Positions 132 through 44,903 of a DNA stretch of 45,792 nucleotides are shown here, one piece after another; within the stretch, counting starts at the first letter, position 1; the number at the start of each line of letters is the position of its first letter. The position numbers and the translations under genes were made by a program. The DNA comes from Candidatus Uhrbacteria bacterium (GTDB lineage: Bacteria > Patescibacteriota > Patescibacteriia > UBA9934 > GWF2-40-263), in the NCBI GenBank assembly GCA_043808565.1, contig JAZDEQ010000067.1:1-45792 (forward strand). The letters are read 5' to 3'. The notes below the pieces were generated by a model. That model was not told the DNA's origin. It did no database searches and worked only from the letters and a program-made list of their open reading frames with translations.

Positions 132-692
132 TTAGCCCTGTCTAACGCCCCCCCCCCAAGGCGTTTCAGCTTGAAAACTTCCAATTATCTCGGACAAAAG
201 GCCGACGGTTTTTTGATCGGCTATTTTTCGTTTTAAAACCGCCAACAAAATCTCGTGATCCACCGAATCAAAAAACTTTTTGATATCGAATTTAAGAGCA
301 AAGCATGGCGAAGAATAATTTTTACTAACCCGACAAACAAAATCTTGAAGCCGCCGCACGGCGGCATGTGTACCTTTGCCGACTCGACAAGAATAACTGT
401 CAAAAATAAAACCCTTTTCAAAAATCGGCAAAAGAACTCGATAGACGGCGTGATGAACCAACCGATCTCGAACCATGGCTTTGTGAATAACTCGGTGTTT
501 AGGATCAAAAAGATGGAAACAATGATATTTGCCGTGGTAATAATTTCCATTTTTTAAATCTTCATGAAGAATAAAAATATTATCTTCAAGATTACGTTCG
601 AATTTCTGAACATCTGGTCTATTCTGTTTACCACACCTAAACTCGTGCCAGGCCGAAAATAAATTCTCTAAAGAAATAATTTTTTCAAACAT
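132..692 (-). pseudogene. DGR-type reverse transcriptase, 3'-truncated (N-terminal half only, no YxDD region)
   Basis: The 186-aa ORF is collinear from residue 1 with the full-length RT at 26851..27933 (MFEKIISLENLFSAW vs LFEQIVTTNNLFLAW; shared FDSYSCRVGKGTHAAV and DIKKFF). It ends right after a G10 run (C10 on the + strand, 158..167), where the paralog continues with IPLGNLTSQ and YCDD. All three frames hit stops within about 20 codons downstream. Confidence 0.75.
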
Positions 693-694
693 AT

Positions 695-1039
695 ATGCAA
701 GAAATATCCGAAACTCCGGTTTTTACTTTATCTTTTAACTTATTGAAGGACATTTATTTGCTACGCAAAAAATTTCCCAAGACTGAAAAATACACACTGG
801 GCGGACAAATGGAACAAACAGCTTTGGAAATAATGTTAAGTATTATTCAAGCCGGCCGGGCTAAAAAACAAGAAAAAATAATACCACTTGAATTAGCCAT
901 TAAGAAAAACGACACAACCAAAATTTTGTTTCGTTTGGCTAAGGAAATAAAACTTATCAGCGACCAACAATATTTAGAGTATCAAGAAAAACTGCAAAAA
1001 ATCGGACAAATGTTGGGCGGCTGGTATCGATCGATATGA
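695..1039 (+). CDS. avd: Avd-like accessory variability determinant (four-helix-bundle / 23S rRNA IVS protein family)
   Basis: 114 aa with FPKTEKYTLGGQ near the N-terminus and KIGQMLGGW at the C-terminus, typical of this family. The paralog at locus 2 has FPKSQRYTLGE and TGKMLGGW. It sits between the RT and TR of a DGR. Its start codon is 2 nt from the divergent RT start, inside the palindrome CATATATG (690..697). Confidence 0.8.
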   Translation: MQEISETPVFTLSFNLLKDIYLLRKKFPKTEKYTLGGQMEQTALEIMLSIIQAGRAKKQEKIIPLELAIKKNDTTKILFRLAKEIKLISDQQYLEYQEKLQKIGQMLGGWYRSI

Positions 1040-1072
1040 ATACTCCGCCTTTTTACAAAAGGCGGAGTATTC
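1038..1072. terminator. Perfect 12-bp hairpin between the avd stop and TR1
   Basis: GAATACTCCGCC (1038..1049) and GGCGGAGTATTC (1061..1072) are exact reverse complements. The loop TTTTTACAAAA can extend the stem. The hairpin lies 3' of avd on the + strand and immediately 3' of TR1 on the - strand. Confidence 0.5.
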
Positions 1073-1081
1073 GCGAAGCAG

Positions 1082-1211
1082 TCCCGGCGGAAGACGAGCG
1101 ACCCATAGTTCGGGTTGGCGATCTTGGCATTCCTGTTCAGGTTGAGCTTGGGCTGGCCGTTCCACACCTTGAGGTACGCGCAGTTGCCACGAGCGTCGCG
1201 GTTCACGGAGC
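1082..1211 (-). repeat. DGR template repeat TR1 (130 bp)
   Basis: It aligns without gaps to 1535..1664. All 13 mismatches are T on the + strand (A in the sense, - strand) in this copy. Sense translation gives the Asn-rich ..VNRDARGNCAYLKVWNGQPKLNLNRNAKIANPNYGSLVFRRD. Confidence 0.92.
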
Positions 1212-1530
1212 TTCCAATTATTGTCACACCCCATCTTTGTCACCAGGTTTTCCGCCAAAGCGGTTAACCTTGAATTTCATTTGGGATTTTTTCCACCAGA
1301 GCATGACAAGGAGTGCCTCGTTAGAATCACGCCCTTTTGTATTCATTTATTCGAACACAAAATTCCGGTGATAACTCTTTCGAGAATTTCGGGGACCCCG
1401 CTGCTCGCAAGCGGCGGGGCACAATACCCTACTTTCAAAAATTATTATAACGAAAATGCGCCAGAATCTCCAGATCTGACGCAAAAAAGAGGAGGAAAAA
1501 AGTGAAAAGACCAGAGGGACGAAGCGACAG

Positions 1531-2418
1531 TCACTCCCGGCGGAAGACGAGCGACCCATAGTGCGGGTAGGCGATCTCGGCATCCCTGTCCAGGAAGAGC
1601 TTGGGCTGGCCGCGCCACACCCCGAGGTACGCGCAGTCGCCACGAGCGTCGCGGTCCACGGAGCCGGGAAGGTCGATGATGTGCTCACCTTCCTTCACAA
1701 TGTCAACCTTGTGTGCATACGCCGTGACACCAACCATGGCCGTGCCGGCCAGAAGGTTGCCGGTGCACTCGATTCGGCAGTCGGTCGGCTTCCGATTCCG
1801 ATTCGACCGGCCGTCATTGCAGCGGAACCAGAACGGTTCCGTCGGATCGCTGTGCCGTTTGTCGCACGGCTCGGCACTTTCGTCGCCGTAGCCAAACTCG
1901 GCATACTTGATGCCGATGAGTTGGCACGCCTTGACGAGCCCCGGCCGAGGATCGGCCAGGAAAAGCAGAGGTAGTTTGGAATCGTTGGCGACCAGAAACG
2001 CAGGAATCTCTGGAATTCCCTCGAGATACGTCTCGAATATCACTCCTTCGCCCCCGAAACCGAGTTCGAACAATCGCCTGGCTTGCGCCAAACGAATTTC
2101 GGCCGGCGCCGACGGAGTGATGGGCGCCGGCATGGCGGCAGACGCTGCCGGCGGAACCGCGGCCGCTTCTCGCAGGACGAGGCGACCAGCGATGAGGTCT
2201 AAGACCTGTTGCGGAGTGATTTCCTTGTAGTAGAGCGCTCGACCCAGCGGATCTGTAGCGGTGTGGTTGACCATCAAGCCGTGGAAACCAGTGGTGGTGA
2301 ATCTCTTGGCCAGTTCAATGATCTGGCTCAGCCACCCAGGGACATCAAGGAGGGTTTCTCTTCTTTCTTCCATCTTTGGCTCCTTACCCCAAAATCCGAA
2401 AAATACAATCTCTTTCAC
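1531..2418 (-). CDS. DGR target (variable) protein 1, with a C-terminal VR-encoded domain ending ..YGSLVFRRE
   Basis: The 295-aa ORF is in a GC-rich block, and its last ~43 codons are VR1. Ten residues differ from the TR1-encoded sequence (N->D, D, R, F, D, D, Y, H; K->G, E). I see no N-terminal signal peptide or TM segment. Confidence 0.85.
   Translation of the reverse strand: MKEIVFFGFWGKEPKMEERRETLLDVPGWLSQIIELAKRFTTTGFHGLMVNHTATDPLGRALYYKEITPQQVLDLIAGRLVLREAAAVPPAASAAMPAPITPSAPAEIRLAQARRLFELGFGGEGVIFETYLEGIPEIPAFLVANDSKLPLLFLADPRPGLVKACQLIGIKYAEFGYGDESAEPCDKRHSDPTEPFWFRCNDGRSNRNRKPTDCRIECTGNLLAGTAMVGVTAYAHKVDIVKEGEHIIDLPGSVDRDARGDCAYLGVWRGQPKLFLDRDAEIAYPHYGSLVFRRE
1535..1664 (-). repeat. 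DGR variable repeat VR1 (130 bp)
   Basis: This is the 3' end of the 1531..2418 ORF. It is identical to TR1 except at 13 positions, all TR adenines in the sense strand (8 A->G, 3 A->T, 2 A->C). The first ~28 nt at the 3' (sense) end are invariant and GC-rich, as expected for an IMH. Confidence 0.92.
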
Positions 2419-23411: not shown

Positions 23412-23487
23412 GTGGTGGACTGATGGGGATTCGAACCCCAGACCCCCGCCTTGCAAAGGCGGTGCTCTACCAACTGAGCTATCAGCC
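23412..23487 (-). tRNA. tRNA-Ala (anticodon UGC), CCA encoded
   Basis: The reverse complement GGGCTGATAGCTCAGTTGGTAGAGCACCGCCTTTGCAAGGCGGGGGTCTGGGGTTCGAATCCCCATCAGTCCACCA folds as a 76-nt cloverleaf (7/4/5/5 stems). The anticodon loop is TTTGCAA, the G3:U70 Ala identity pair is present, and the T-loop is TTCGAAT. Confidence 0.95.
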
Positions 23488-23671
23488 CGTTTTTTTTTGG
23501 AAATTCGAAATTCGAAAATTAGTTTTGACTAATTTTTTAAAATCGAATTCACTCAAAAAGTATAGGGAAAAAAAATGATTTAGTCAAAAAAAACGAAAAG
23601 CGCGCTTAGGAAATTGTACCCCAAACGCGCCGATGATGATCCCGGCTTGGCCCCCCCTTTTTTTCTCTGCT

Positions 23672-24946
23672 TCATACTGCAGACCAGGCTGGGATGTAGC
23701 TCCAACGCACCGTCGTTGGACCCCTACTTACCTCTTCGAGGTTCTCGGTGATCCAGATAAACTTCCGGATCAAACCGATGGTCTCGGCCGACAGGGGGTC
23801 GGCTTCACGCCACCGACTGTCGGCGTGGGCTTCAAGAGCCCGCGACACCGTGTCAACGTTGGTGTTATGAGTAGCCACCAACACTTTCTGCCGCCAAGCT
23901 TCGTTCTTGATTCTTGAACGAGCTTTAGACGACAGTCTTGACTCGTTGTAATCTAAGTTGAGCAAGATCAATTTGAACGCCGAGACAAGTTCGGCACGTC
24001 CGTGGTTGGCATTATCCGACAAGCTGGCTGTCGGATATTCAACCCGCAGACCCTGATAGGTCTTTGGCATAACCTGACCGGCGCCGTAAGCGCCGCCCGG
24101 ACTTCCGGTTACGAGAACCGCTGGATTGGCGGCGATCTTCTCAAGCAAACCCGTCATGCAACCACGTTGTTCGACCACTGTCTTCCGACTGTCGAACGGA
24201 CTGCAGGTGAATGGCTGCTCGGCCAAGACGATCAGAACCGAAAGCTCGATATTCTCCTCACTGACCACCAGCTCGCCCGGGCGAGCCTTCGACGGAACGC
24301 CACGCTGGCGTAGATCGTCAGCAGCACCAACCGCGGCCCCCCGGAGAATTTCGAGTCCGGCTTGGGCTCTGGTGGTTTGGGCGGTGGAGATGACGGTAGC
24401 GGCCGTGGCCTCCTTCATTGGTGGAACGGGAACGGCAACTTTCGCCGCGCTCGTCCTATTCGGTTTCGATGATTCTTCGTCGAACACCTTTTCAATGTCA
24501 GTGCGCCCAAGGAGAAAAATCAGCGCCTCCCGAGCGCAGACTGAAAAAAAGAGGTTGGCGATCATGACGGCAACCACGCCGGTTCGAAGAACGCTCTGTC
24601 CTGGCGTCGCTGGCTTTTCTTCTTCGGAGACGTGTGTCTTGCGATTGGTCCACATAGCACCCCAAAGGAAAATTTGCCGACCAAGCGCCAAGACAGCTCC
24701 GAAACCACCAACATAAATAAGTGCTTCGATGGCGAATAGCATCGCCGCGACTACAGACTTTTCCCAACCGACCAGCCCAAAGAAGACACCGCTTCTCCAA
24801 ACAAAATCGGCCGAAAAGTAACCGCAGATCGCGGCCGCCGTCACGGTCATGACCACAACGGCCCATTTTCCCTTCAGTACTCTTTCCACATTCACCTCCA
24901 ACATCAGCTGTGAAGGGTTGGTTTTACTGCGACCGAGGTTGGCCAA
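23672..24946 (-). CDS. GC-rich membrane protein with a possible lytic-transglycosylase-like segment
   Basis: 424-aa ORF with a TTG start (internal ATGs are possible). It has three or more N-terminal hydrophobic segments. The C-terminal half contains GSPGGAYGAGQVMPKTYQ, reminiscent of the SLT GLMQ(I/V)MPxT motif. Its composition is far more GC-rich than its neighbours. Confidence 0.55.
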   Translation of the reverse strand: MANLGRSKTNPSQLMLEVNVERVLKGKWAVVVMTVTAAAICGYFSADFVWRSGVFFGLVGWEKSVVAAMLFAIEALIYVGGFGAVLALGRQIFLWGAMWTNRKTHVSEEEKPATPGQSVLRTGVVAVMIANLFFSVCAREALIFLLGRTDIEKVFDEESSKPNRTSAAKVAVPVPPMKEATAATVISTAQTTRAQAGLEILRGAAVGAADDLRQRGVPSKARPGELVVSEENIELSVLIVLAEQPFTCSPFDSRKTVVEQRGCMTGLLEKIAANPAVLVTGSPGGAYGAGQVMPKTYQGLRVEYPTASLSDNANHGRAELVSAFKLILLNLDYNESRLSSKARSRIKNEAWRQKVLVATHNTNVDTVSRALEAHADSRWREADPLSAETIGLIRKFIWITENLEEVSRGPTTVRWSYIPAWSAV

Positions 24947-26710: not shown

Positions 26711-26791
26711 ATGGCAACCAAGAAAAAAGCTGTGAAAAAAGTCGCTAAGAAACCAGCTGCTAAGAAAGTCGCTAAAAAAAAGAAGAAATAA
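26711..26791 (+). CDS. 26-aa lysine-rich small basic protein
   Basis: MATKKKAVKKVAKKPAAKKVAKKKKK. It is preceded by a strong SD (GGGAGGTGA, about 9 nt upstream) and followed by the hairpin AAAATCCCGTGA..TCATGGGATTTTTT (about 26806..26840). Confidence 0.55.
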   Translation: MATKKKAVKKVAKKPAAKKVAKKKKK

Positions 26792-26850: not shown

Positions 26851-27933
26851 TTAAAATATTGATTCATCCGAACCAACCTTATTACGAATAATACATTCAA
26901 TTTCATAAGCATCTGCGTGCGAGCAAAAACCTAAATACGACTGAAAATTATTTCTGTCAGAACGATAAATAGCTCGTTTGGCTGTGGTTGGTCGAACCAA
27001 AATTACTTCCGGCAAGATAACGTATCCGAGAAAATCAACACCCTGCGTCCAAGTTGTTATAAAAACCTTATCAGGATGTAGGCGAACCTTAAGCCGACTT
27101 TGAAGAAATGTGTCAATCTTTTTTGCCAATTCCATTCCTTCGGATATTGATTGGGCTAAGATAACAAAATCATCACAGTAACGAACATAATGTTTTAGAC
27201 CTAATTTCTGTTTTACAAACCAATCCAATTCGTGAAGATAAATATTGGCAAAAAGCTGGCTAGTTAAGTTACCAAGCGGAATGCCCGTTTCGGGTGTGGT
27301 AGAAAAACTTCTTACAATATTACGAATAACAGCCATTGTTTTTTGATCGTGTATTCGTTTAGTGAGTAGCTCTAACAAAACAGCGTGGTTAACTGAAGCA
27401 AAAAACTTTTTAATATCGCATTTCACGGCATAGACAGTTTTGGTGTTATTTTCTGAAGCTTGTCGAAGAAAAAATCGAAGTCGTTTAACTGCGGCATGAG
27501 TACCCTTACCAACACGACAAGAATAGCTGTCAAAAATAAACCGTTTTTCAAATAGCAGTTCAATAACATTTACAATCGCTTGATGAACAACTCTATCCCG
27601 AACCAATGCTTTATGAATTGTTCTTTGTTTTGGATCATGAATAGTGAACGGGGTGTATTGGCTGTGATAATAATAACCGTCGGTTAATTCGTTTTGAAGC
27701 TGAAAAATATTGTCCTCAAGATTTTTTTCAAACAACATCACATCTTCTCGTCTGCGTTTGCCGTTTCGGAATAATTCCCAAGCCAAAAATAAATTATTGG
27801 TAGTCACTATTTGTTCGAACAAATTATTTTCTTTTTGATTATGGATAAGGTTAACACTCTCCCTTTCTCCAAAAAATTTGAGGCCGAGCGCAAGTTGTTC
27901 AACGGCGGGCCCGGCGATATCCCGATTGTTCAT
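26851..27933 (-). CDS. DGR reverse transcriptase (full length)
   Basis: 360-aa ORF with IPLGNLTSQLFANIYL (the DGR-typical xGNLTSQ motif) and YVRYCDDFVI (YxDD). By alignment with the locus-1 RT, the true start is probably the TTG at 27822 (MFEQIVTTNNLF), inside the perfect palindrome TTGTTCGAACAA (27811..27822). Confidence 0.9.
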   Translation of the reverse strand: MNNRDIAGPAVEQLALGLKFFGERESVNLIHNQKENNLFEQIVTTNNLFLAWELFRNGKRRREDVMLFEKNLEDNIFQLQNELTDGYYYHSQYTPFTIHDPKQRTIHKALVRDRVVHQAIVNVIELLFEKRFIFDSYSCRVGKGTHAAVKRLRFFLRQASENNTKTVYAVKCDIKKFFASVNHAVLLELLTKRIHDQKTMAVIRNIVRSFSTTPETGIPLGNLTSQLFANIYLHELDWFVKQKLGLKHYVRYCDDFVILAQSISEGMELAKKIDTFLQSRLKVRLHPDKVFITTWTQGVDFLGYVILPEVILVRPTTAKRAIYRSDRNNFQSYLGFCSHADAYEIECIIRNKVGSDESIF

Positions 27934-28287
27934 ACTGTTTACGACATTTATGTTTCTTGGAATGAAATCATTTTAAAGTTTCCGAAATCGCAACGCTATA
28001 CACTTGGTGAAACTTGTTCCAAATATATTTTAACAATTCTTGAAAACTTACTCTTCGCCGCTTCGGCCGGTGAAATATCTGAAAAACTTCCAAAACTGAA
28101 AACCGTTAGCGCAGAAATCGACACCTTAAAACTTCTCGTTCGACTGGCAAAGGACTGCAAATGTATTGCCAATAATCAATATCAAAAAATTGAATCACTA
28201 CTAAACGAAACCGGAAAAATGTTGGGTGGCTGGATAAAATCATTTGGTAAAGGAAATGAAAATGAAGACGAAAAGGAGCACCTGTAG
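27841..28287 (+). CDS. avd: Avd-like accessory variability determinant (four-helix-bundle protein)
   Basis: FPKSQRYTLGE.., ..LVRLAKDCKCIANNQYQKIESLLNETGKMLGGW, collinear with the locus-1 Avd. The start is uncertain: ATG 27841, TTG 27895, or the track's TTG 27811. It is divergent from and abuts the RT. Confidence 0.8.
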   Translation: MDKVNTLPFSKKFEAERKLFNGGPGDIPIVHTVYDIYVSWNEIILKFPKSQRYTLGETCSKYILTILENLLFAASAGEISEKLPKLKTVSAEIDTLKLLVRLAKDCKCIANNQYQKIESLLNETGKMLGGWIKSFGKGNENEDEKEHL

Positions 28288-28300
28288 GTACTCCTTTTTT
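28271..28300. terminator. Hairpin between the avd stop and TR2
   Basis: AAAAGGAGCACC-TGTA-GGTACTCCTTTT with one internal mismatch and T-runs on both strands. It occupies the same position as the hairpin at 1038..1072 in locus 1. Confidence 0.45.
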
Positions 28301-28308
28301 AATGAGAA

Positions 28309-28433
28309 CTCCCTGCGGACGGGCATGGCGTTCTTGTAGAATCGGTTGTCGACATAGTTGCCGTTCAGCTTCGCCCTGTCGTCGTTCCGCCAGACATTCG
28401 GCGAGTTAGACCACTCGTCGTAGTCGGGAACGC
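28309..28433 (-). repeat. DGR template repeat TR2 (125 bp)
   Basis: It aligns without gaps to 28853..28977. All 16 mismatches are T on the + strand (A in the sense strand) in this copy. The sense translation is Asn-rich: VPDYDEWSNSPNVWRNDDRAKLNGNYVDNRFYKNAMPVRRE. Confidence 0.92.
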
Positions 28434-28837
28434 GTCCAGTTACATTTCATTCTTCCAAGACACCGGGCACAGACGCATCCATACCCTGAATTTTATGTGA
28501 AACCCTCTGACCAAGAATCAACAAACACTTTTTTATTGGTTTGGTTTCAAAATGAAATGCGGAGTGCTCATTAATCCGTTCCGTACACTTCTGTCTTCAA
28601 GAGAAAGCAGAACCCTGACGGCGTTTAGGATTACGAGAGATTTCGGCGGCCAGTATCCGTGAACACTGGTACATTAGCCTACTTTCCAATCATTAGTTTA
28701 TCAAAATTTTCTCAAAAAGAAGAGCCGCATTCGAAGATGCGACTCTGGGGTCGAAAATTCGGATGCGGCGAGGTGCTTCGCACCGGAAAGCCAAGTGGCA
28801 AATTGCCAAGGCTTCCAAGTGCAAAGCATTCAAGTGT

Positions 28838-29665
28838 CTAGAGCTTGTTGGGCTCCCTGCGGACGGGCATGGCGCGCTCGTAGAATCGGCAGTCGACATA
28901 GTCGCCGCTCAGCTCCGCCCTGCCGCCGCCCCGCCAGACACCCGGCGAGAGAGACCACTCGTCGTAGTCGGGAACGCTGAGAAGGAGTGCGGCCATGATG
29001 GCATAAGGAATCTTTTCTCCATCCATTTGGCGTACCCACTCCGGATGCTGGCTGGCGGCAAAGAGGGGCTCAAAATCGGCAAGGTGTCCAATTTGCTTCT
29101 GTTGAACCTCAGCGAGAACCGTACCATCGCGTCGGTTCCAGTTGGCGCCGAAGTCCACGATGTGCAGGGCGAGTTCGTTCGGAACGAACGTGCGGGCACC
29201 TTCTATAAGCTTGATTCGCTTGTCATCGACACCGTTCGCGTAGGCTGCGTCCCATTCCGAATACTTTTCACTGTGAGCCGTCCGCATCAACGCACGGCCA
29301 AAGAGGAGTGTTGCGGGCACGGATTCGCGGTTGGAGACGATGACCGGAGCGAGCAGGCGGGACTTCGGCAATTCGGCCTCGAAGAGTTCGAACAGCCCAC
29401 GATCACGAGCCTTCGCGAGCATGATGTCGATCATGTCACCAGTCACACCTTCGTACTCACGCGCCATCGCCACGACGTCGTCGAGGGGTGACCAGATGCC
29501 GTGGATGAGACGGAAAACGGGATCTAGCATGGCAGTATCGAACATTGCCTTCATGATGCCCGGATTCTGATTGATCTTCCGACCCTGTTCGGCAGTGAAG
29601 AACTCACCCATGATCCGCTTGAGCTCGGTGAGTTCGCCGTCACGCAGGTTCGAGAAATGAGACAT
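28838..29665 (-). CDS. DGR target (variable) protein 2
   Basis: 275-aa GC-rich ORF whose last ~45 codons are VR2 (..VPDYDEWSLSPGVWRGGGRAELSGDYVDCRFYERAMPVRREPNKL). Eleven residues differ from the TR2-encoded sequence. No signal peptide or TM segment is evident. Confidence 0.85.
   Translation of the reverse strand: MSHFSNLRDGELTELKRIMGEFFTAEQGRKINQNPGIMKAMFDTAMLDPVFRLIHGIWSPLDDVVAMAREYEGVTGDMIDIMLAKARDRGLFELFEAELPKSRLLAPVIVSNRESVPATLLFGRALMRTAHSEKYSEWDAAYANGVDDKRIKLIEGARTFVPNELALHIVDFGANWNRRDGTVLAEVQQKQIGHLADFEPLFAASQHPEWVRQMDGEKIPYAIMAALLLSVPDYDEWSLSPGVWRGGGRAELSGDYVDCRFYERAMPVRREPNKL
28853..28977 (-). repeat. DGR variable repeat VR2 (125 bp)
   Basis: Identical to TR2 except at 16 positions, all TR adenines in the sense strand (12 A->G, 2 A->C, 2 A->T). 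Both ends are invariant. Confidence 0.92.
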
Positions 29666-30019
29666 GATTAACTCCCTGATTGCCGCTTGGCTGACCGTTC
29701 CGGGTACTTCCCGTTGGGCTGACCTTTTTGTTGAAAGCGGCCTTTTGCTTCAAAAATTTTGGAGCAAAAAGCCGCCTTTAACACAGAACTTGTTTAAATG
29801 AACAGGGATGAATTATAGCAGAAAATAGCCAAAAAGTCAATGTTTTGACCCAGGTTTGGCGGTTTTTGCTAGGAATTTGGTTGTTTTCTTCGAACAGAAA
29901 ACAGTTTAGGCGAAAAAATTTAATCCTTGTTAACTTTGGTTTGTTAATATCAAACCGGTCAATCAGTATTAAAAAACAAATCAGTTTTCACTGAAAAATA
30001 AAATTTTATGTCAGATATA

Positions 30020-40545: not shown

Positions 40546-40655
40546 TTCTGGCGTCGACCTACTCTCGCCCAAACGGACTACCATCGGCCCAGGAGGTCTT
40601 AACGGCTGTGTTCGGGATGGGAACAGGTGTTACCCCTCCGGAAATGACACCAGAA
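40546..40655 (-). rRNA. rrf: 5S rRNA
   Basis: The reverse complement reads TTCTGGTGTC..CCCATCCCGAACACAGCCGTTAAG..GGCCGATGGTAGT..GCGAGAGTAGGTCGACGCCAGAA, matching conserved 5S blocks. It is flanked by a 9-bp processing stem (GTCCCACAG/CTGTGGGAC). Confidence 0.9.
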
Positions 40656-41104
40656 CTGTGGGACTTTTCAAATTTTTTTCAAACTTGAAGATCAAGAGAA
40701 TTTATCGAGAATATCAAATGACAAATTTTGAAATGACCAATGGTGGATTTTATATCTTAAAAATATTTTTCCATCATTAGACATTTGTCATTGAACAATT
40801 TGACATTCCCACCAGATCGCTGCTTACAGTGATCGTAGAGCTCGACTTATTAGTACCGCTCCGCTACACGCATTACTGCGCTTCCACGTACGGCCTATCA
40901 ACCTGCTAGTCTCGCAGGAGTCTATTAATGAAGGCTAATCTTAAGGTCGGCTTCACGCTTAGATGCTTTCAGCGTTTATCCGAACCGAACGTAGCTACCC
41001 GGCACTACTCTTGGCAGAATAACCGGTACACTAGAGGTTCGTCCATCTCGGTCCTCTCGTACTAGAGATGAATCCTTGCAACCTTCGGCGCCCATGGTAG
41101 ATAG

Positions 41105-41156
<52 letters not shown>

Positions 41157-41763
41157 TGGCGAACAGCCAAACCCTTGGAACCTTCTCCAGCTCCAGGATG
41201 CGACGGGCCGACATCGAGGTGCCAAACCCCCCCGTCGATGTGGACTCTTGGGGGGGATCAGCCTGTTATCCCCGGAGTAGCTTTTATCCGTTGAGCTTCC
41301 GCCGTCCTATTTCGTACGGTCGGATCACTAACTTCCGCTTTCGCGACTGCGCGACTTGTCTGTCTTGCAGTAAAGCAGGCTTATGCGTTTGCACGTCCAG
41401 CGCGATTTCCATCCGCGCTAAGCCTACCTTTGTAAACGCCTCCGTTACTTTTTGGGAGGCACCCGCCCCAGGTAAACTACCCACCAGCTACTGTCCCAAC
41501 CACCGGATAACGGTGATCGGTTAGAATTCACGTGACGCAAGGGTGGTGTCTCATTGGCGCCTTGCGGCTCCCACCTACTCTGAACATGCGAAACATGAAC
41601 CCAATAACAAGTTGTAGTAAAGCTTCACGGGGTCTTTTCGTCTAACCACGGGTAATGAGCATCTTCACTCATCTTGCAATTTCACCGAGTCCCTTGTTGA
41701 GACAGTCATCAACTCGTTATGCCATTCGTGCAGGACGGAACTTACCCGTCAAGGAATTTCGCT

Positions 41764-42512
41764 CTTTTTTTGTTACCGCCTTTTGGCGAGTGCAAACATT
41801 TCTGTTGCACTCTGTATGTCGCCATACAGATCGGACTATATCTTTCGTGAACCATTACGGTTCACGATCCGGCGTGTAGTCTCTGAGGATTTCAGAAATC
41901 GCGATGGAACCTTTCGGTTCATGCTTTGGATAATTTTTGCGATTTTTTTAAGACCTTGAAAATTTTTATGAATTTCTTGATCCATTAGAACAAGAATTTT
42001 CTTAAATTTTTTTAAGTCTTCTTTTTTTGCTGTTCTTAAAGGATTTCTTACAAAGAAAGGAATTATCTTTTCTTTTAAATCTTTTCTGGAACGAACGCAA
42101 AACCGCAAAAGGTTTTCTTTGTGATTATCATGACGGCGATTTAAATATATCTCACCGCATTGAAAATATTTTTTAATTATTTCCAAAGCTGATCGACTTT
42201 TTTCGCCCTGGGTCACAACAAACTCAGGAAAAACCTGCCAACCACAAGAGGTGGTTGAGTTACGAATTAATGAAACAGAGAAGCAGCCCTCTCCGTCAAC
42301 AAATCCGCAAATCCAATTATCAATTCCTGACCTTTCCTGCTGATTGTCTGCATTTGAAACTTTTTTACTTGGCATAACTATGTACGTATTATACCTTAGT
42401 AGTTCAAAATTCACCAGATGTTCCAGCATTTAGCCAGATTTTTTCTCTACATCTTCATGGCACACGAAGTTCGAGAAGAGGGCTTTCACCTCACTAAGGC
42501 AGCTTTTATCCT
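41764..42512 (-). mobile_element. Group I intron in the 23S rRNA (between ..CCUAAGGU and AGCGAAAUUCC..)
   Basis: The conserved exon sequence CCTAAGGTAGCGAAATTCC is split by 749 nt. The 5' exon ends in U and the insert ends in G (..CAAAAAAAG), as group I splicing requires. It contains a LAGLIDADG ORF. Confidence 0.8.
41836..42429 (-). CDS. LAGLIDADG homing endonuclease (single-motif type)
   Basis: 197 aa with NWICGFVDGEGCFSV (the LAGLIDADG motif). It lies entirely within the rRNA insertion and has AT-rich codon usage. Confidence 0.85.
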   Translation of the reverse strand: MLEHLVNFELLRYNTYIVMPSKKVSNADNQQERSGIDNWICGFVDGEGCFSVSLIRNSTTSCGWQVFPEFVVTQGEKSRSALEIIKKYFQCGEIYLNRRHDNHKENLLRFCVRSRKDLKEKIIPFFVRNPLRTAKKEDLKKFKKILVLMDQEIHKNFQGLKKIAKIIQSMNRKVPSRFLKSSETTRRIVNRNGSRKI

Positions 42513-43399
42513 ACCTTAGGACGATTATAGTTATCGCCGGCGTTCATCAGCGCTTCAGTTGGAGGCTGCCCCCCGCACCTTTACCACCAGCAATCCGTCG
42601 TCTAGTGACGGACTGATGAAAAAGGTGCGGGGATGACCCCCTCCCTTAACGTTCTGACACTGGCCAGGCATCAGCCCCTATACATCAGCTTGCGCTTTAG
42701 CAGGGACCTGTGTTTTTGATAAACAGTCGGTTGATGTCTTTCGCTGCGGGTCGCCCCCTCCCGGGGGCAACCAGGCCTTATTCCAAAGTTACGGCCACTG
42801 TTTTGCCGAGTTCCTTAACAAAGGGTTCTCTCGTACGCCTTGGCACATTCGCGTGCCCACCCACCTGTGTCGGTTTCCGGTACGGGTCCATTTTACCTAA
42901 CCTTAGAGGTTTTTCTAGGTTCTCTTTCTCTTCCCCTTGCTCACCTTGCGGCAAGCTTGCGATCACGTTCGAATTTAACGGCTGGCGGATTTGCCTACCA
43001 ACCATTCCAACGCGCCCAACGTCATAGCCATAGGACGCGGGAAGATACGGAAAACGTCACCCCTTCGAAATAAAACGGAGTGCAGGAATATTAACCTGCT
43101 GTGCATCGACTACGCCTTTCGGCCTCATCTTAGCTCCCGACTAACCCTAGGACGATTCTCGTTGCCCAGGAAACCTCGGGTTTACGGCGGACAGGATTCT
43201 CACCTGTCTTTGTGCTACTTATGCCAACATTCTCTCTTCGCAACGCTCCACCATGCCTCACGACACGACTTCAGCGCAGATGCGAATGCTCCCCTACCGC
43301 TTAATCTTGCGATTAAACCCTCAACTTCGGTACATCATTTAGCCCCGGTACATTTTCGGCGCGGAAAGGCTTGACCAGTGAGCTGTTACGCTATCTTTA

Positions 43400-43436
<37 letters not shown>

Positions 43437-44051
43437 GAGCCTCTCTACCACCTTTTACACTTAATGATGATTTAGGGACCTTAGTTTGAGATCTGGACTG
43501 TTTTCCTTTTGACGTATGGAGCTTAGCCCCCATCGTCTGACTGCCGGGAACACTTATTGGTATTCGGAGTTTGGTTAGGAGTTCTATCTTGCGACGAACG
43601 TCCCATTCAGTGCTCTACCCCCAATGTGTTATTTACCGACGCTAGCCCAAAAGCTATCTCGGGGAGAACCAGCTATTACCGAGTTCGATTGGAATTTCTC
43701 CGCTAACCACAGCTCATCTCCACGTGTTGTACGGCGTGTGAGTTCGGGCCTCCACGAACTGTTACATTCGCTTCACCCTGGCCATGGTTAGGTCACCCGG
43801 TTTCGGGTCGTATATGTGCTACCTTCTGACTATGTTCAAGGCGGGAGAATTACTTCTCCGGCTTGAACAAAGTCAGATAACGCGCTTGAACGCTCGCTTT
43901 CACTCCGGCTCCGCCCCATAGGGCTTAACCAAGCAACACATAGTACACTCGTTGGCTCATTCTTCAATAGGAACGCTATCACCCCAGAGATTACTCTCGA
44001 GGCTCTAACTCCTTGTAAGCATACGGTTTCAGATACTATTTCATTCCCCTT

Positions 44052-44084
<33 letters not shown>

Positions 44085-44437
44085 GGTGCACTATCGATCA
44101 GAACACGTATTTAGTCTTGCCACATAGTCGCGGCAGGTTCCCACAAGATTTCACGGGTCTCGTGGTACTCAAGAGCGCTTAAAACCTTAACTAAAAATAT
44201 TTTACGTACAGGACTATCACCTTCTATGGTTCCACTTTCCAGTGGATTTCATTATATTTAAAGTTAAAGTCGATTTTCGGCAGAAAATCACTTAAACGCC
44301 TTACAACACCCTACTAACAACGGCTGCCACCTTTCATTTTGCTTCATCAAGTAAACTTGATTCCGCAAAACTTCATCAATAAGGTTTGGACTGTTCCCTT
44401 TTCGTTCGCCACTACTAAGGGAATGGACTCGCTGATA

Positions 44438-44510
44438 TGTAGAAGTCGTATAAGACGTAGAAATCGTAGATTTTACAATCTACGTTTTCTACGATTCTAC
44501 GCTTTCTACA
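44438..44510 (-). repeat. IVS-like long hairpin of CGTAGA/TCTACG words inside 23S domain I
   Basis: TGTAGAAGTCGTATAAGACGTAGAAATCGTAGATT / AATCTACGTTTTCTACGATTCTACGCTTTCTACA form an imperfect palindrome. It is inserted between the conserved GGAAA..AGATTAACTCATTGA and AGCGAGTCCATTCCCTTAGTAGTGGCGAACG blocks. Confidence 0.6.
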
Positions 44511-44903
44511 ATCAATGAGTTAATCTTTTTCCTTTCCTCTGGGTACTGAGATGTTTCACTTCCCCAGGTGCCCTTCCGGCGCCTATGTATTCAGCGACGG
44601 ATAATCGCGTTTTACGCGATTGGGTTGCCCCATTCGGATATTCCCGGATCAAAGGTTGCTTGCCACCTCCCCGAGACTTTTCGCAGGCTGCTACGTCCTT
44701 CATCGGCATGTTCTGTCGAGCCATCCTCCGTATGCCCTTAATGCTCTACAATCACTGAAAGAATCGATCCTTCAGTGTTTAAAATTTGTTCATTACCACT
44801 ATTGGTTCTCTTGATCTTCAGTTGTGAATGATCTATTCGGATCCATCCGGATCCGTGGCGTAGGGAACAAAATTTTTTGTTCCGTACACCGCGATCCCGG
44901 AGT

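Follow-up and report, generated by a model that had tools for sequence, protein, structure and literature searches.

The 45,792-nt stretch of DNA analyzed here in full (the window; contig JAZDEQ010000067.1 of assembly GCA_043808565.1, Candidatus Uhrbacteria bacterium) carries a diversity-generating retroelement (DGR), referred to as cassette 2, in which a reverse transcriptase (RT) gene, an avd gene, a template repeat (TR), and a target gene ending in a variable repeat (VR) lie side by side. The locus is very likely a chromosomal DGR of the ‘Architecture B3’ type known in the Candidate Phyla Radiation (CPR), a reading that explains the observations best as a whole, including those that bear on a structured leader RNA upstream of TR. 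The window is chromosomal and has an rRNA operon, a tRNA gene, and genes for housekeeping functions. An earlier reading of the same letters (the original prediction) had called a complete DGR here, with RT, Avd, TR, and a VR at the target C-terminus that diverges at adenines only, and all of the tests run agree with that call.

The relationship between TR2 and VR2 bears the mark of a DGR. Re-alignment returned the pair as first claimed (28309–28433 and 28853–28977): the two repeats run in register at an offset of 544 over 125 nt, with 0 gaps and 16 mismatches, and constitute the second-longest direct repeat in the window. Every mismatch is a T in TR on the + strand, hence an A on the coding - strand, and there is no non-adenine mismatch among the 16. 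TR has 32 adenines among its 125 nt; if mismatches fell at random, 16 of 16 would hit adenines with a probability of 9.6e-12 (hypergeometric). Half of the TR2 adenines (16/32) are substituted in VR2, the replacing bases being G in twelve cases, C in two, and T in two. Read in the frame of the target open reading frame (ORF 28838–29665(-)), all 16 mismatches sit at codon position 1 or 2, 10 of them within AAC codons, and 11 codons are altered (six AAC, one AAT, two GAC, and two AAG), as the original prediction had stated in claiming that the mismatches are mostly in AAC codons and change 11 residues. The final 22 nt of VR2 (...GCCATGCCCGTCCGCAGGGAG) are identical to TR2 and GC-rich, resembling an initiation of mutagenic homing (IMH) site, and the three adenines found there are unmutated. 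Just past this shared 3' end, at 28852 and 28308, the flanks of VR and TR diverge completely. VRs end in ...GGGAGT (codons R-E-stop), and many TRs have GGGACT at the same place (1081 versus 1534 in the window, and many loci elsewhere); this is a fixed non-adenine boundary difference that may mark donor and recipient (IMH* versus IMH).

The protein components point the same way. RT2 contains both motifs named in the original prediction (IPLGNLTSQ and YCDD), as GIPLGNLTSQ and RYCDDF in ORF 26851–27933(-), and matches Pfam RVT_1 as well as phrog_1423, a phage RT family, at 5.8e-105. Its LGNLTSQ fits [I/L]GxxxSQ, the form that motif 4 takes in DGR RTs. Its best match in the Protein Data Bank (PDB) is a chain of 8ub7 (E 9e-45, 156 bits), to which RT2 aligns at full length with all motifs; this chain we take, from its sequence, to be Bordetella phage bRT. 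Group II and retron-type RTs in the PDB score at most 82 bits against RT2 (best group II RT, E 2.6e-22); on similarity scores, the claim of a DGR-type rather than a group II or retron RT holds. The true start of RT2 is probably the TTG at 27822, judging by homology with RT1 of the second cassette in the window. Avd2 scores 84.1 bits against NCBIfam NF033474 (DivGenRetAVD), above the curated cut-off of 80, and matches Pfam bAvd at 1.8e-17 and phrog_3206 (‘Avd protein of DGR’) at 1e-20. An Avd between RT and TR had been predicted, and it is indeed there, on the + strand, opposite the RT, TR, and target, a point that the original prediction had left out.

These results leave very little room for the idea that the locus is not a DGR at all, and consists of a group II intron, retron, or defense RT next to an ordinary duplicated gene fragment. 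RT2 does have sub-threshold matches to group II, retron, and DRT (defense-associated RT) models, but they fall far below the curated cut-offs (152.8 against 300 for the NCBI group II RT/maturase model, and 49 against 235 for the retron RT model), and Rfam gives no group II intron or retron RNA at gathering score. Since the best solved relative of RT2 is 8ub7, the mismatches are confined to adenines (P about 1e-11), and an Avd is present, we regard this alternative as exceedingly improbable.

On the - strand, the components follow each other as target, VR, a 419-nt spacer, TR, avd (inverted), and RT. The order target-VR-TR-(avd reversed)-RT defines ‘Architecture B3’, TR-(avd)-RT, to which 90% of the CPR DGR set belongs (Wu et al. 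2018, PMC5758913), and the cassette 2 coordinates have this order, its target lying upstream and sharing the strand of the RT, as in the published definition. More than 30 related loci share the gene order. TR/VR pairs that differ at adenines only occur in that order in ~25 metagenome loci and in five loci (L003, L005, L009, L014, and L015) found via target homologues in Ca. Uhrbacteria and other metagenome-assembled genomes (MAGs); homologues of both targets in the window come from Ca. Uhrbacteria MAGs. Because B3 is published and the order recurs in related loci, the layout is typical of the lineage, and its description as atypical in the original prediction does not stand. Neither does that of the target family, which is unannotated, yet unannotated targets are the norm among CPR DGRs (PMC5758913). 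A direct comparison with the CPR B3 DGRs of Wu et al. 2018 finds component order, strands, Avd, C-terminal VR, a small target without domains, and chromosomal setting alike; the anatomy has no difference, and the window is a member. Cassette 2 is a further example of the known CPR B3 type, apparently intact, and CPR B3 DGRs are probably part of DGR clade 2 as described by Roux et al. 2021 (PMC8144416), a clade restricted to Patescibacteria. As a DGR, it is one more among tens of thousands. What gives the locus and its relatives their value is the insight they offer into the CPR branch, to which many of the DGRs known so far belong: the leader RNA model and the uncharacterized target fold are traits of the lineage, not of this copy.

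Table 1. Coordinates of the DGR features in the window; cassette 2 is listed first, from the target promoter to the RT, followed by cassette 1.
Feature	Position	Strand	Remarks
Promoter-like site of target 2	29812..29840	-	TTGACT, 17-nt spacer, TG-extended TATAAT; 11/12 consensus, consensus match only
Target gene 2	28838..29665	-	ORF, 275-aa soluble protein, VR at C-terminus
VR2 (variable repeat)	28853..28977	-	Residues 231-271 of 275-aa target; 16/16 mismatches at TR adenines
Long hairpin	28774..28828	-	55 nt, 24 nt 3' of VR, partly CTTGG repeats
Intrinsic-terminator-like hairpin and T-run	28721..28746	-	10-bp stem, then TCTTTTTG; predicted to end the target transcript
Extended -10 box of predicted separate TR-RNA promoter	28695..28703	-	TGATAAACT
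Conserved structured leader	28434..28688	-	~255 nt, directly 5' of TR
Leader block	28561..28573	-	UAAUGAGCACUCC; proposed primer-side strand, pairs with 28312-28300
TR2 (template repeat)	28309..28433	-	125 nt, 32 adenines
TR 3' end (GGAG) and TR-specific flank	28300..28312	-	Flank UUCUCAUUA; template-side strand of the duplex
Stem-loop just 3' of TR	28271..28298	-	12 bp, z = -4.3; overlaps avd stop codon; from terminator scan
avd2	27841..28287	+	ORF 27811-28287; likely start TTG 27895, by homology to L003
DGR reverse transcriptase 2	26851..27933	-	Longest ORF; likely start TTG 27822 (MFEQIV...)
DGR cassette 1	132..2418	-	Same layout; 13/13 mismatches at TR adenines, P 2.6e-10
VR1	1535-1664		Inside 3' end of target 1, 1531-2418(-)
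-10 box, cassette 1	1444-1452		
Leader, cassette 1	about 1212-1438		
TR1	1082-1211		29 adenines
Stem-loop, cassette 1	1038-1072		
avd1	695-1039	+	
RT1 fragment	132-692	-	

The spacer between VR and TR contains the more unusual feature of the cassette, the leader, which is conserved in more than 40 related loci. Alignment of the VR-to-TR intervals revealed conserved blocks that are shared even by cassettes with unrelated targets, five of them nearly invariant; the leader blocks are GGAAAGUAGG, CCGAAAU, GYACUCCG, CAUAAAAUUCA, GGAUGCGUCU, and GGUG..UGGAAG. A search pattern made from three blocks (AGTASG....TG, YCNCCGAAAT, and RGYACTCC) was found in 49 metagenome stretches, and almost all of these that have enough flank show VR, motif, TR, avd (reverse), and RT, with TR/VR differences at adenines only. 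The window contains the pattern twice, once per cassette. The signature AGTASG..CCGAAAT..RGYACTCC finds such DGRs even on short contigs. We also observed a YTGGAAG motif ~25 nt upstream of TR.

Covariation across the alignment supports a folded leader. RNAalifold, applied to 38 aligned sequences, proposes 36 pairs, 31 of which have compensatory double changes, and two short helices found by scanning bring the model to 45 pairs. In this model, 93.7% of cells are standard pairs, compared with 35–47% when the partners are slid by 1–3 columns, and 382 cells show changes on both sides, compared with 47–89 in the slid controls; none of 500 shuffles came up to these figures. Of the 45 covarying pairs, 43 are still standard in the leader of the window itself. 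A stem at the variable insertion (UGGAAyC...GrUUCCg) and the inner part of helix 6 were left out of the tested structure, the MAFFT alignment being unresolved there. A pseudoknot candidate (columns 392–394 with 34–36) conflicts with helix 2. The cassette has no Rfam match, either at gathering score or at E up to 5. In the literature, term searches of Wu et al. 2018 (PMC5758913) found neither a promoter nor an RNA structure for CPR B3 DGRs, and Handa et al. (10.1101/2023.10.23.563531) covered only 40 nt upstream of TR.

Signals that would separate the transcription of target and TR flank the leader on its 5' side. The terminator-like hairpin that is predicted to end the target transcript is conserved in L003, L005, and L009. 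Further on, ~6–7 nt before the first leader block, the 38 aligned loci share the consensus TTTGnTATAAT, with T9, A10, and T14 conserved at 90% or more. Closer to VR, the long hairpin at 28774–28828 has a minimum free energy (MFE) of -35.3 kcal/mol (z = -5.7), a value matched by 0 of 200 shuffles, and it is a candidate counterpart of the inverted repeat that lies 3' of the IMH in the Bordetella phage DGR. Arrays of the pentamer CTYGG lie 3' of VR in most related loci (28791–28819 in the window; L024–L061), with 3 to ~10 copies at a spacing of ~8–12 nt and a tendency to fold, on the sense strand, into hairpins rich in G-U pairs.

A second RNA element would tie the leader to the end of TR. The block UAAUGAGCACUCC (28573–28561) pairs with GGAGUUCUCAUUA (28312–28300) at 12 of 13 positions. 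Across loci, the invariant GYACUCC and the 5–6 nt that precede it are complementary to the TR end (GGAGU or GGACU) plus a 3' flank specific to each TR, and the two flank strands co-vary in 25 distinct cassettes, giving pairs such as AAUGAG:CUCAUU, GAUGGG:CCCAUC, AACAAG:CUUGUU, and UCGAGUA:UACUCGA. In these 25 cassettes, 82% of cells are paired versus 27–45% in slid controls, and 43 cells carry double changes versus 3–13. The duplex also forms, unconstrained, in the MFE structure of the window’s 429-nt RNA. On the leader strand, ...ACUCC is followed by a nearly invariant G, and the template base that comes next, 5' of the duplex, is a G as well. In Bordetella, the primer strand of the spacer RNA (Sp 53–56) pairs with TR 118–121 and is followed by G57, and the first base copied is TR G117 (10.1101/2023.10.23.563531); a partner strand followed by a G opposite a template G is therefore common to Bordetella and the present locus.

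Past the duplex, by 5–10 nt, the related loci always have a stem-loop of 9–16 bp whose stem sequence is variable. Its representative in the window (28271–28298) has the form of a bidirectional terminator-like hairpin and is a candidate Avd-binding stem-loop. ‘Avd-binding’ stem-loops of this kind, just 3' of TR, were predicted in 207 of 278 Avd-encoding DGRs, drawn from taxa among which are CPR members (Handa et al., 10.1101/2023.10.23.563531).

These elements can be assembled into a model of how the cassette would work. First: the TR RNA would be a separate transcript of ~430 nt that starts from the TGnTATAAT promoter in the VR-TR spacer, opens with the covarying leader of ~255 nt, and stops at the stem-loop overlapping the avd stop codon. 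Second: the leader block UAAUGAGCACUCC, together with the nearly invariant G that follows it, would pair with the last nucleotides of TR and their private 3' flank, forming a duplex that may be the counterpart of the TR:Sp template:primer duplex in Bordetella. The leader would thereby provide the nucleotide that primes synthesis and a large part of the scaffold for protein binding from a position upstream of TR rather than downstream, a placement that could be a rearrangement forced by the inverted avd. Third: as expected from the established DGR mechanism, RT and Avd would reverse transcribe the TR-containing RNA with random incorporation opposite adenines, and the cDNA would replace VR, its homing guided by the invariant GC-rich VR 3' end and the hairpin that follows. 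The outcome would be a fixed scaffold with as many as 32 nucleotides free to vary.

Several observations weigh against this picture. The leader folded alone is no more stable than its shuffles (z = -0.79), and the evidence for its structure is for this reason comparative and not thermodynamic. In the duplex analysis, the TR-side strand was chosen by a best-pairing scan, which inflates the percentage of paired cells, although all of the chosen sites are at GGGA, the TR end. The core ACUCC:GGAGU pairs are invariant and, hence, contribute no covariation evidence, and TRs that end in GGGAC have a C-C mismatch at one core position. The predicted promoter, the ends of the transcript, and the leader’s role in priming are deduced from conservation. 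The UGAG of the leader also pairs inside the leader, as helix 6 (28634–28637 with 28567–28570; A4 alignment columns 121–124 with 202–205), in competition with the duplex. Outside the RNA, the target 2 protein is uncharacterized, and an exact look-up of RT2 in other assemblies was empty, the target cluster consisting of one member on one contig. Because the duplex and CUCG(U)AAUCC, a leader segment similar to the flank 3' of TR, both make use of this UGAG, the RNA may have two conformations that exclude each other.

The leader could also be read as only a promoter and 5' untranslated region (UTR), or as a stabilizing or regulatory element, with the priming and RT-binding RNA located 3' of TR as in Bordetella, antisense to avd. 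The only solved system does have its primer and RT-binding elements 3' of TR (10.1101/2023.10.23.563531), the RT lies further along the same strand, and in some loci the stem-loop after TR lacks a clean U-run, which would allow read-through into antisense avd. Yet the duplex with the TR end shows compensatory changes in 25 loci, which are hard to explain for a UTR, and the nearly invariant blocks persist across cassettes with unrelated targets. The region 3' of the stem-loop has the coding sequence of avd on its other strand, and conservation beyond the coding signal was not seen there. We consider this alternative unlikely, while granting it some weight.

A leader that primes from upstream of TR is the reading we propose for the RNA, and it can be stated in a fuller form. 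The RNA of B3 DGRs would be rearranged such that the leader both primes and holds RT-Avd, with NNNNRGYACUCC and the following G clamping the TR 3' end; the UGAG pairing could be a switch between resting and active forms; and the diversified domain of this target family may have a fold other than a recognizable C-type lectin. Taken together, these propositions are tentative, and we place them slightly short of an even chance. Their interest lies in the fact that an inverted avd occupies the place held by the essential spacer RNA in the only mechanistically solved DGR; the leader and its duplex with the TR end offer a concrete priming model that is open to mutation.

The Bordetella phage BPP-1 DGR (mtd-avd-TR-Sp-brt) is the natural reference for this proposal. 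Cassette 2 shares with it a homologous RT (E 9e-45), Avd, adenine-specific mutagenesis, an invariant GC-rich VR 3' end followed by a hairpin, a stem-loop just 3' of TR, and a duplex at the TR end. The two systems differ in three respects. BPP-1 has the non-coding Sp between TR and RT, whereas the inverted avd is found at this place in cassette 2. In cassette 2, unlike in BPP-1, the pairing partner of the TR 3' end is located ~130 nt upstream of TR, inside a 255-nt leader that has its own predicted promoter. Lastly, the BPP-1 target is a C-type lectin of the phage tail fiber, in contrast to a cytoplasmic protein with no assigned fold. Were the model right, a structured non-coding RNA 5' of the template that primes in cis would also be shared with retrons (msr/msd, 2'-OH priming), which nonetheless differ in that the RT of cassette 2 belongs to another clade and is accompanied by an Avd, its template codes for protein, and its product homes into the target gene.

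Evidence of DGR activity comes from sister elements in other samples. In three pairs of independent sister contigs, whose RTs are 53–60% identical to RT2, the TRs and the 150–300 nt upstream are identical within the pair, and all VR differences are at TR adenines: 15/15 for L059 versus L064, 12/12 for L034 versus L045, and 18/18 for L040 versus L049, or 45/45 in the pooled pairs. The lineage is active in nature, because sisters with identical TRs differ in their VRs solely at TR adenines. Cassette 2 itself might still be a fossil, once active and now with a VR that is an ordinary fixed sequence. The single-member target cluster on a single contig is in line with such a state, and so is the lack of a catalytic half in RT1 of the same window, which suggests that DGR decay occurs in this genome. 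RT2, however, is full length with all motifs, and Avd2 is above its curated cut-off; the leader and the duplex keep 43 of 45 and 12 of 13 pairs; TR retains its AAC-rich coding; and the sister elements are demonstrably active. On this balance, a fossil cassette is improbable, and an intact DGR remains our reading.

Target 2 protein: neither a signal peptide nor a transmembrane segment was seen by eye. At 90% clustering, the protein has 28 relatives in Ca. Uhrbacteria and other MAGs, all of them ‘hypothetical’ and without Pfam domains. A HMMER scan with the family profile reached 304 clusters at 50% identity, and sharing is broadest over the C-terminal ~100 residues. In the family alignment, the C-terminal segment is conserved save at the positions encoded by TR adenines. 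Neither target 1 nor target 2 has a match in Pfam, NCBIfam, PHROG, or PADLOC. The AlphaFold2 models are confident: the pLDDT (predicted local distance difference test) reaches 92 over the full length and 94 in residues 100–275; in the model, the VR residues form a beta-hairpin and the terminal strand and are preceded by helices. Foldseek returned nothing with E < 0.1 (full model against PDB and BFVD, C-terminal domain against PDB), and, in PDB and BFVD, no match to a known DGR variable protein. The weak matches that recur are C-type lectins, the best being a human one (TM-score 0.36–0.42, probability 0.2); they do not establish the C-type-lectin fold that the original prediction had put forward for testing. 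In the C-type-lectin DGR proteins (Mtd, TvpA, TaqVP, and archaeal AvpA), VR is likewise the last ~40 residues, and the order of elements in the target 2 model (beta, alpha, ..., alpha, beta x4) is compatible with a lectin-like fold; unlike those proteins, target 2 has no match to any solved structure in the PDB by sequence or profile search. Target 1 is a separate small Uhrbacteria family with no detectable kinship to target 2 (BLASTP; hhalign E 0.3 and 0.15). Both target families comprise small proteins of the cytoplasm that are modeled with confidence and lack known relatives, and they are candidates for the recognition of intracellular ligands or invaders. A long inverted repeat, AAAGGCGGCUUUUUGCUCC...GAAGCAAAAGGCCGCUUU, lies at 29717–29797(-), in the predicted 5' UTR of target 2, between the promoter-like site and the start codon.

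The target genes also stand out in composition. Both of them, and both TRs, have 56–62% GC, compared with 41% for the window and 35–38% for RT and avd, and the GC content at third codon positions (GC3) is 0.71 in the target versus 0.28 in RT2. Across 14 related metagenome loci, the mean GC is 0.63 in targets, 0.46 in RT, and 0.51 in the rest. The excess of target and TR over RT, avd, and the surrounding genome amounts to 13–19 points, also in L001, L003, L004, and L005, and the contrast is found as well in target homologues that have no RT or Avd among their annotated neighbor genes. Off-target adenine mutagenesis was rejected as the cause of the GC-richness of the targets, as adenine on the coding strand (0.205) is about as frequent as thymine (0.21). 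Elsewhere in the window, a 56% GC island at 23672–24946(-) adjoins tRNA-Ala (23413–23488) and encodes a 424-aa protein with hydrophobic N-terminal segments, as judged by eye. The island looks horizontally acquired; its ORF has no match in Pfam, NCBIfam, PHROG, or PADLOC and takes part in no TR/VR pair.

Cassette 1: the second DGR of the window includes both the leader and the duplex. Its RT1 aligns to RT2 residues 1–180 at 55% identity and then continues into unrelated sequence. The RT1 ORF stops at residue ~181, directly ahead of motif 4 and beyond a 10-nt homopolymer (148–157) near the contig end, and the catalytic half is missing. The truncation may reflect decay of RT1, and VR1 would then depend on RT2 acting in trans; otherwise it stems from faulty assembly at the contig end.

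Two further regions of the window deserve a brief description. Abutting the 3' end of the RT2 gene, a lysine-rich ORF of 26 codons (MATKKKAVKKVAKKPAAKKVAKKKKK) at 26711–26791(+) has a strong ribosome-binding site, GGGAGG; after it come a hairpin and T-run that resemble a terminator. In the rRNA operon, the 23S rRNA match at 40831–44751(-) extends over 3921 nt against a model of 2925 nt, which implies insertions of ~1 kb; 23S rRNA insertions are common in CPR bacteria. The 5S rRNA follows the 23S rRNA, at 40546–40654.

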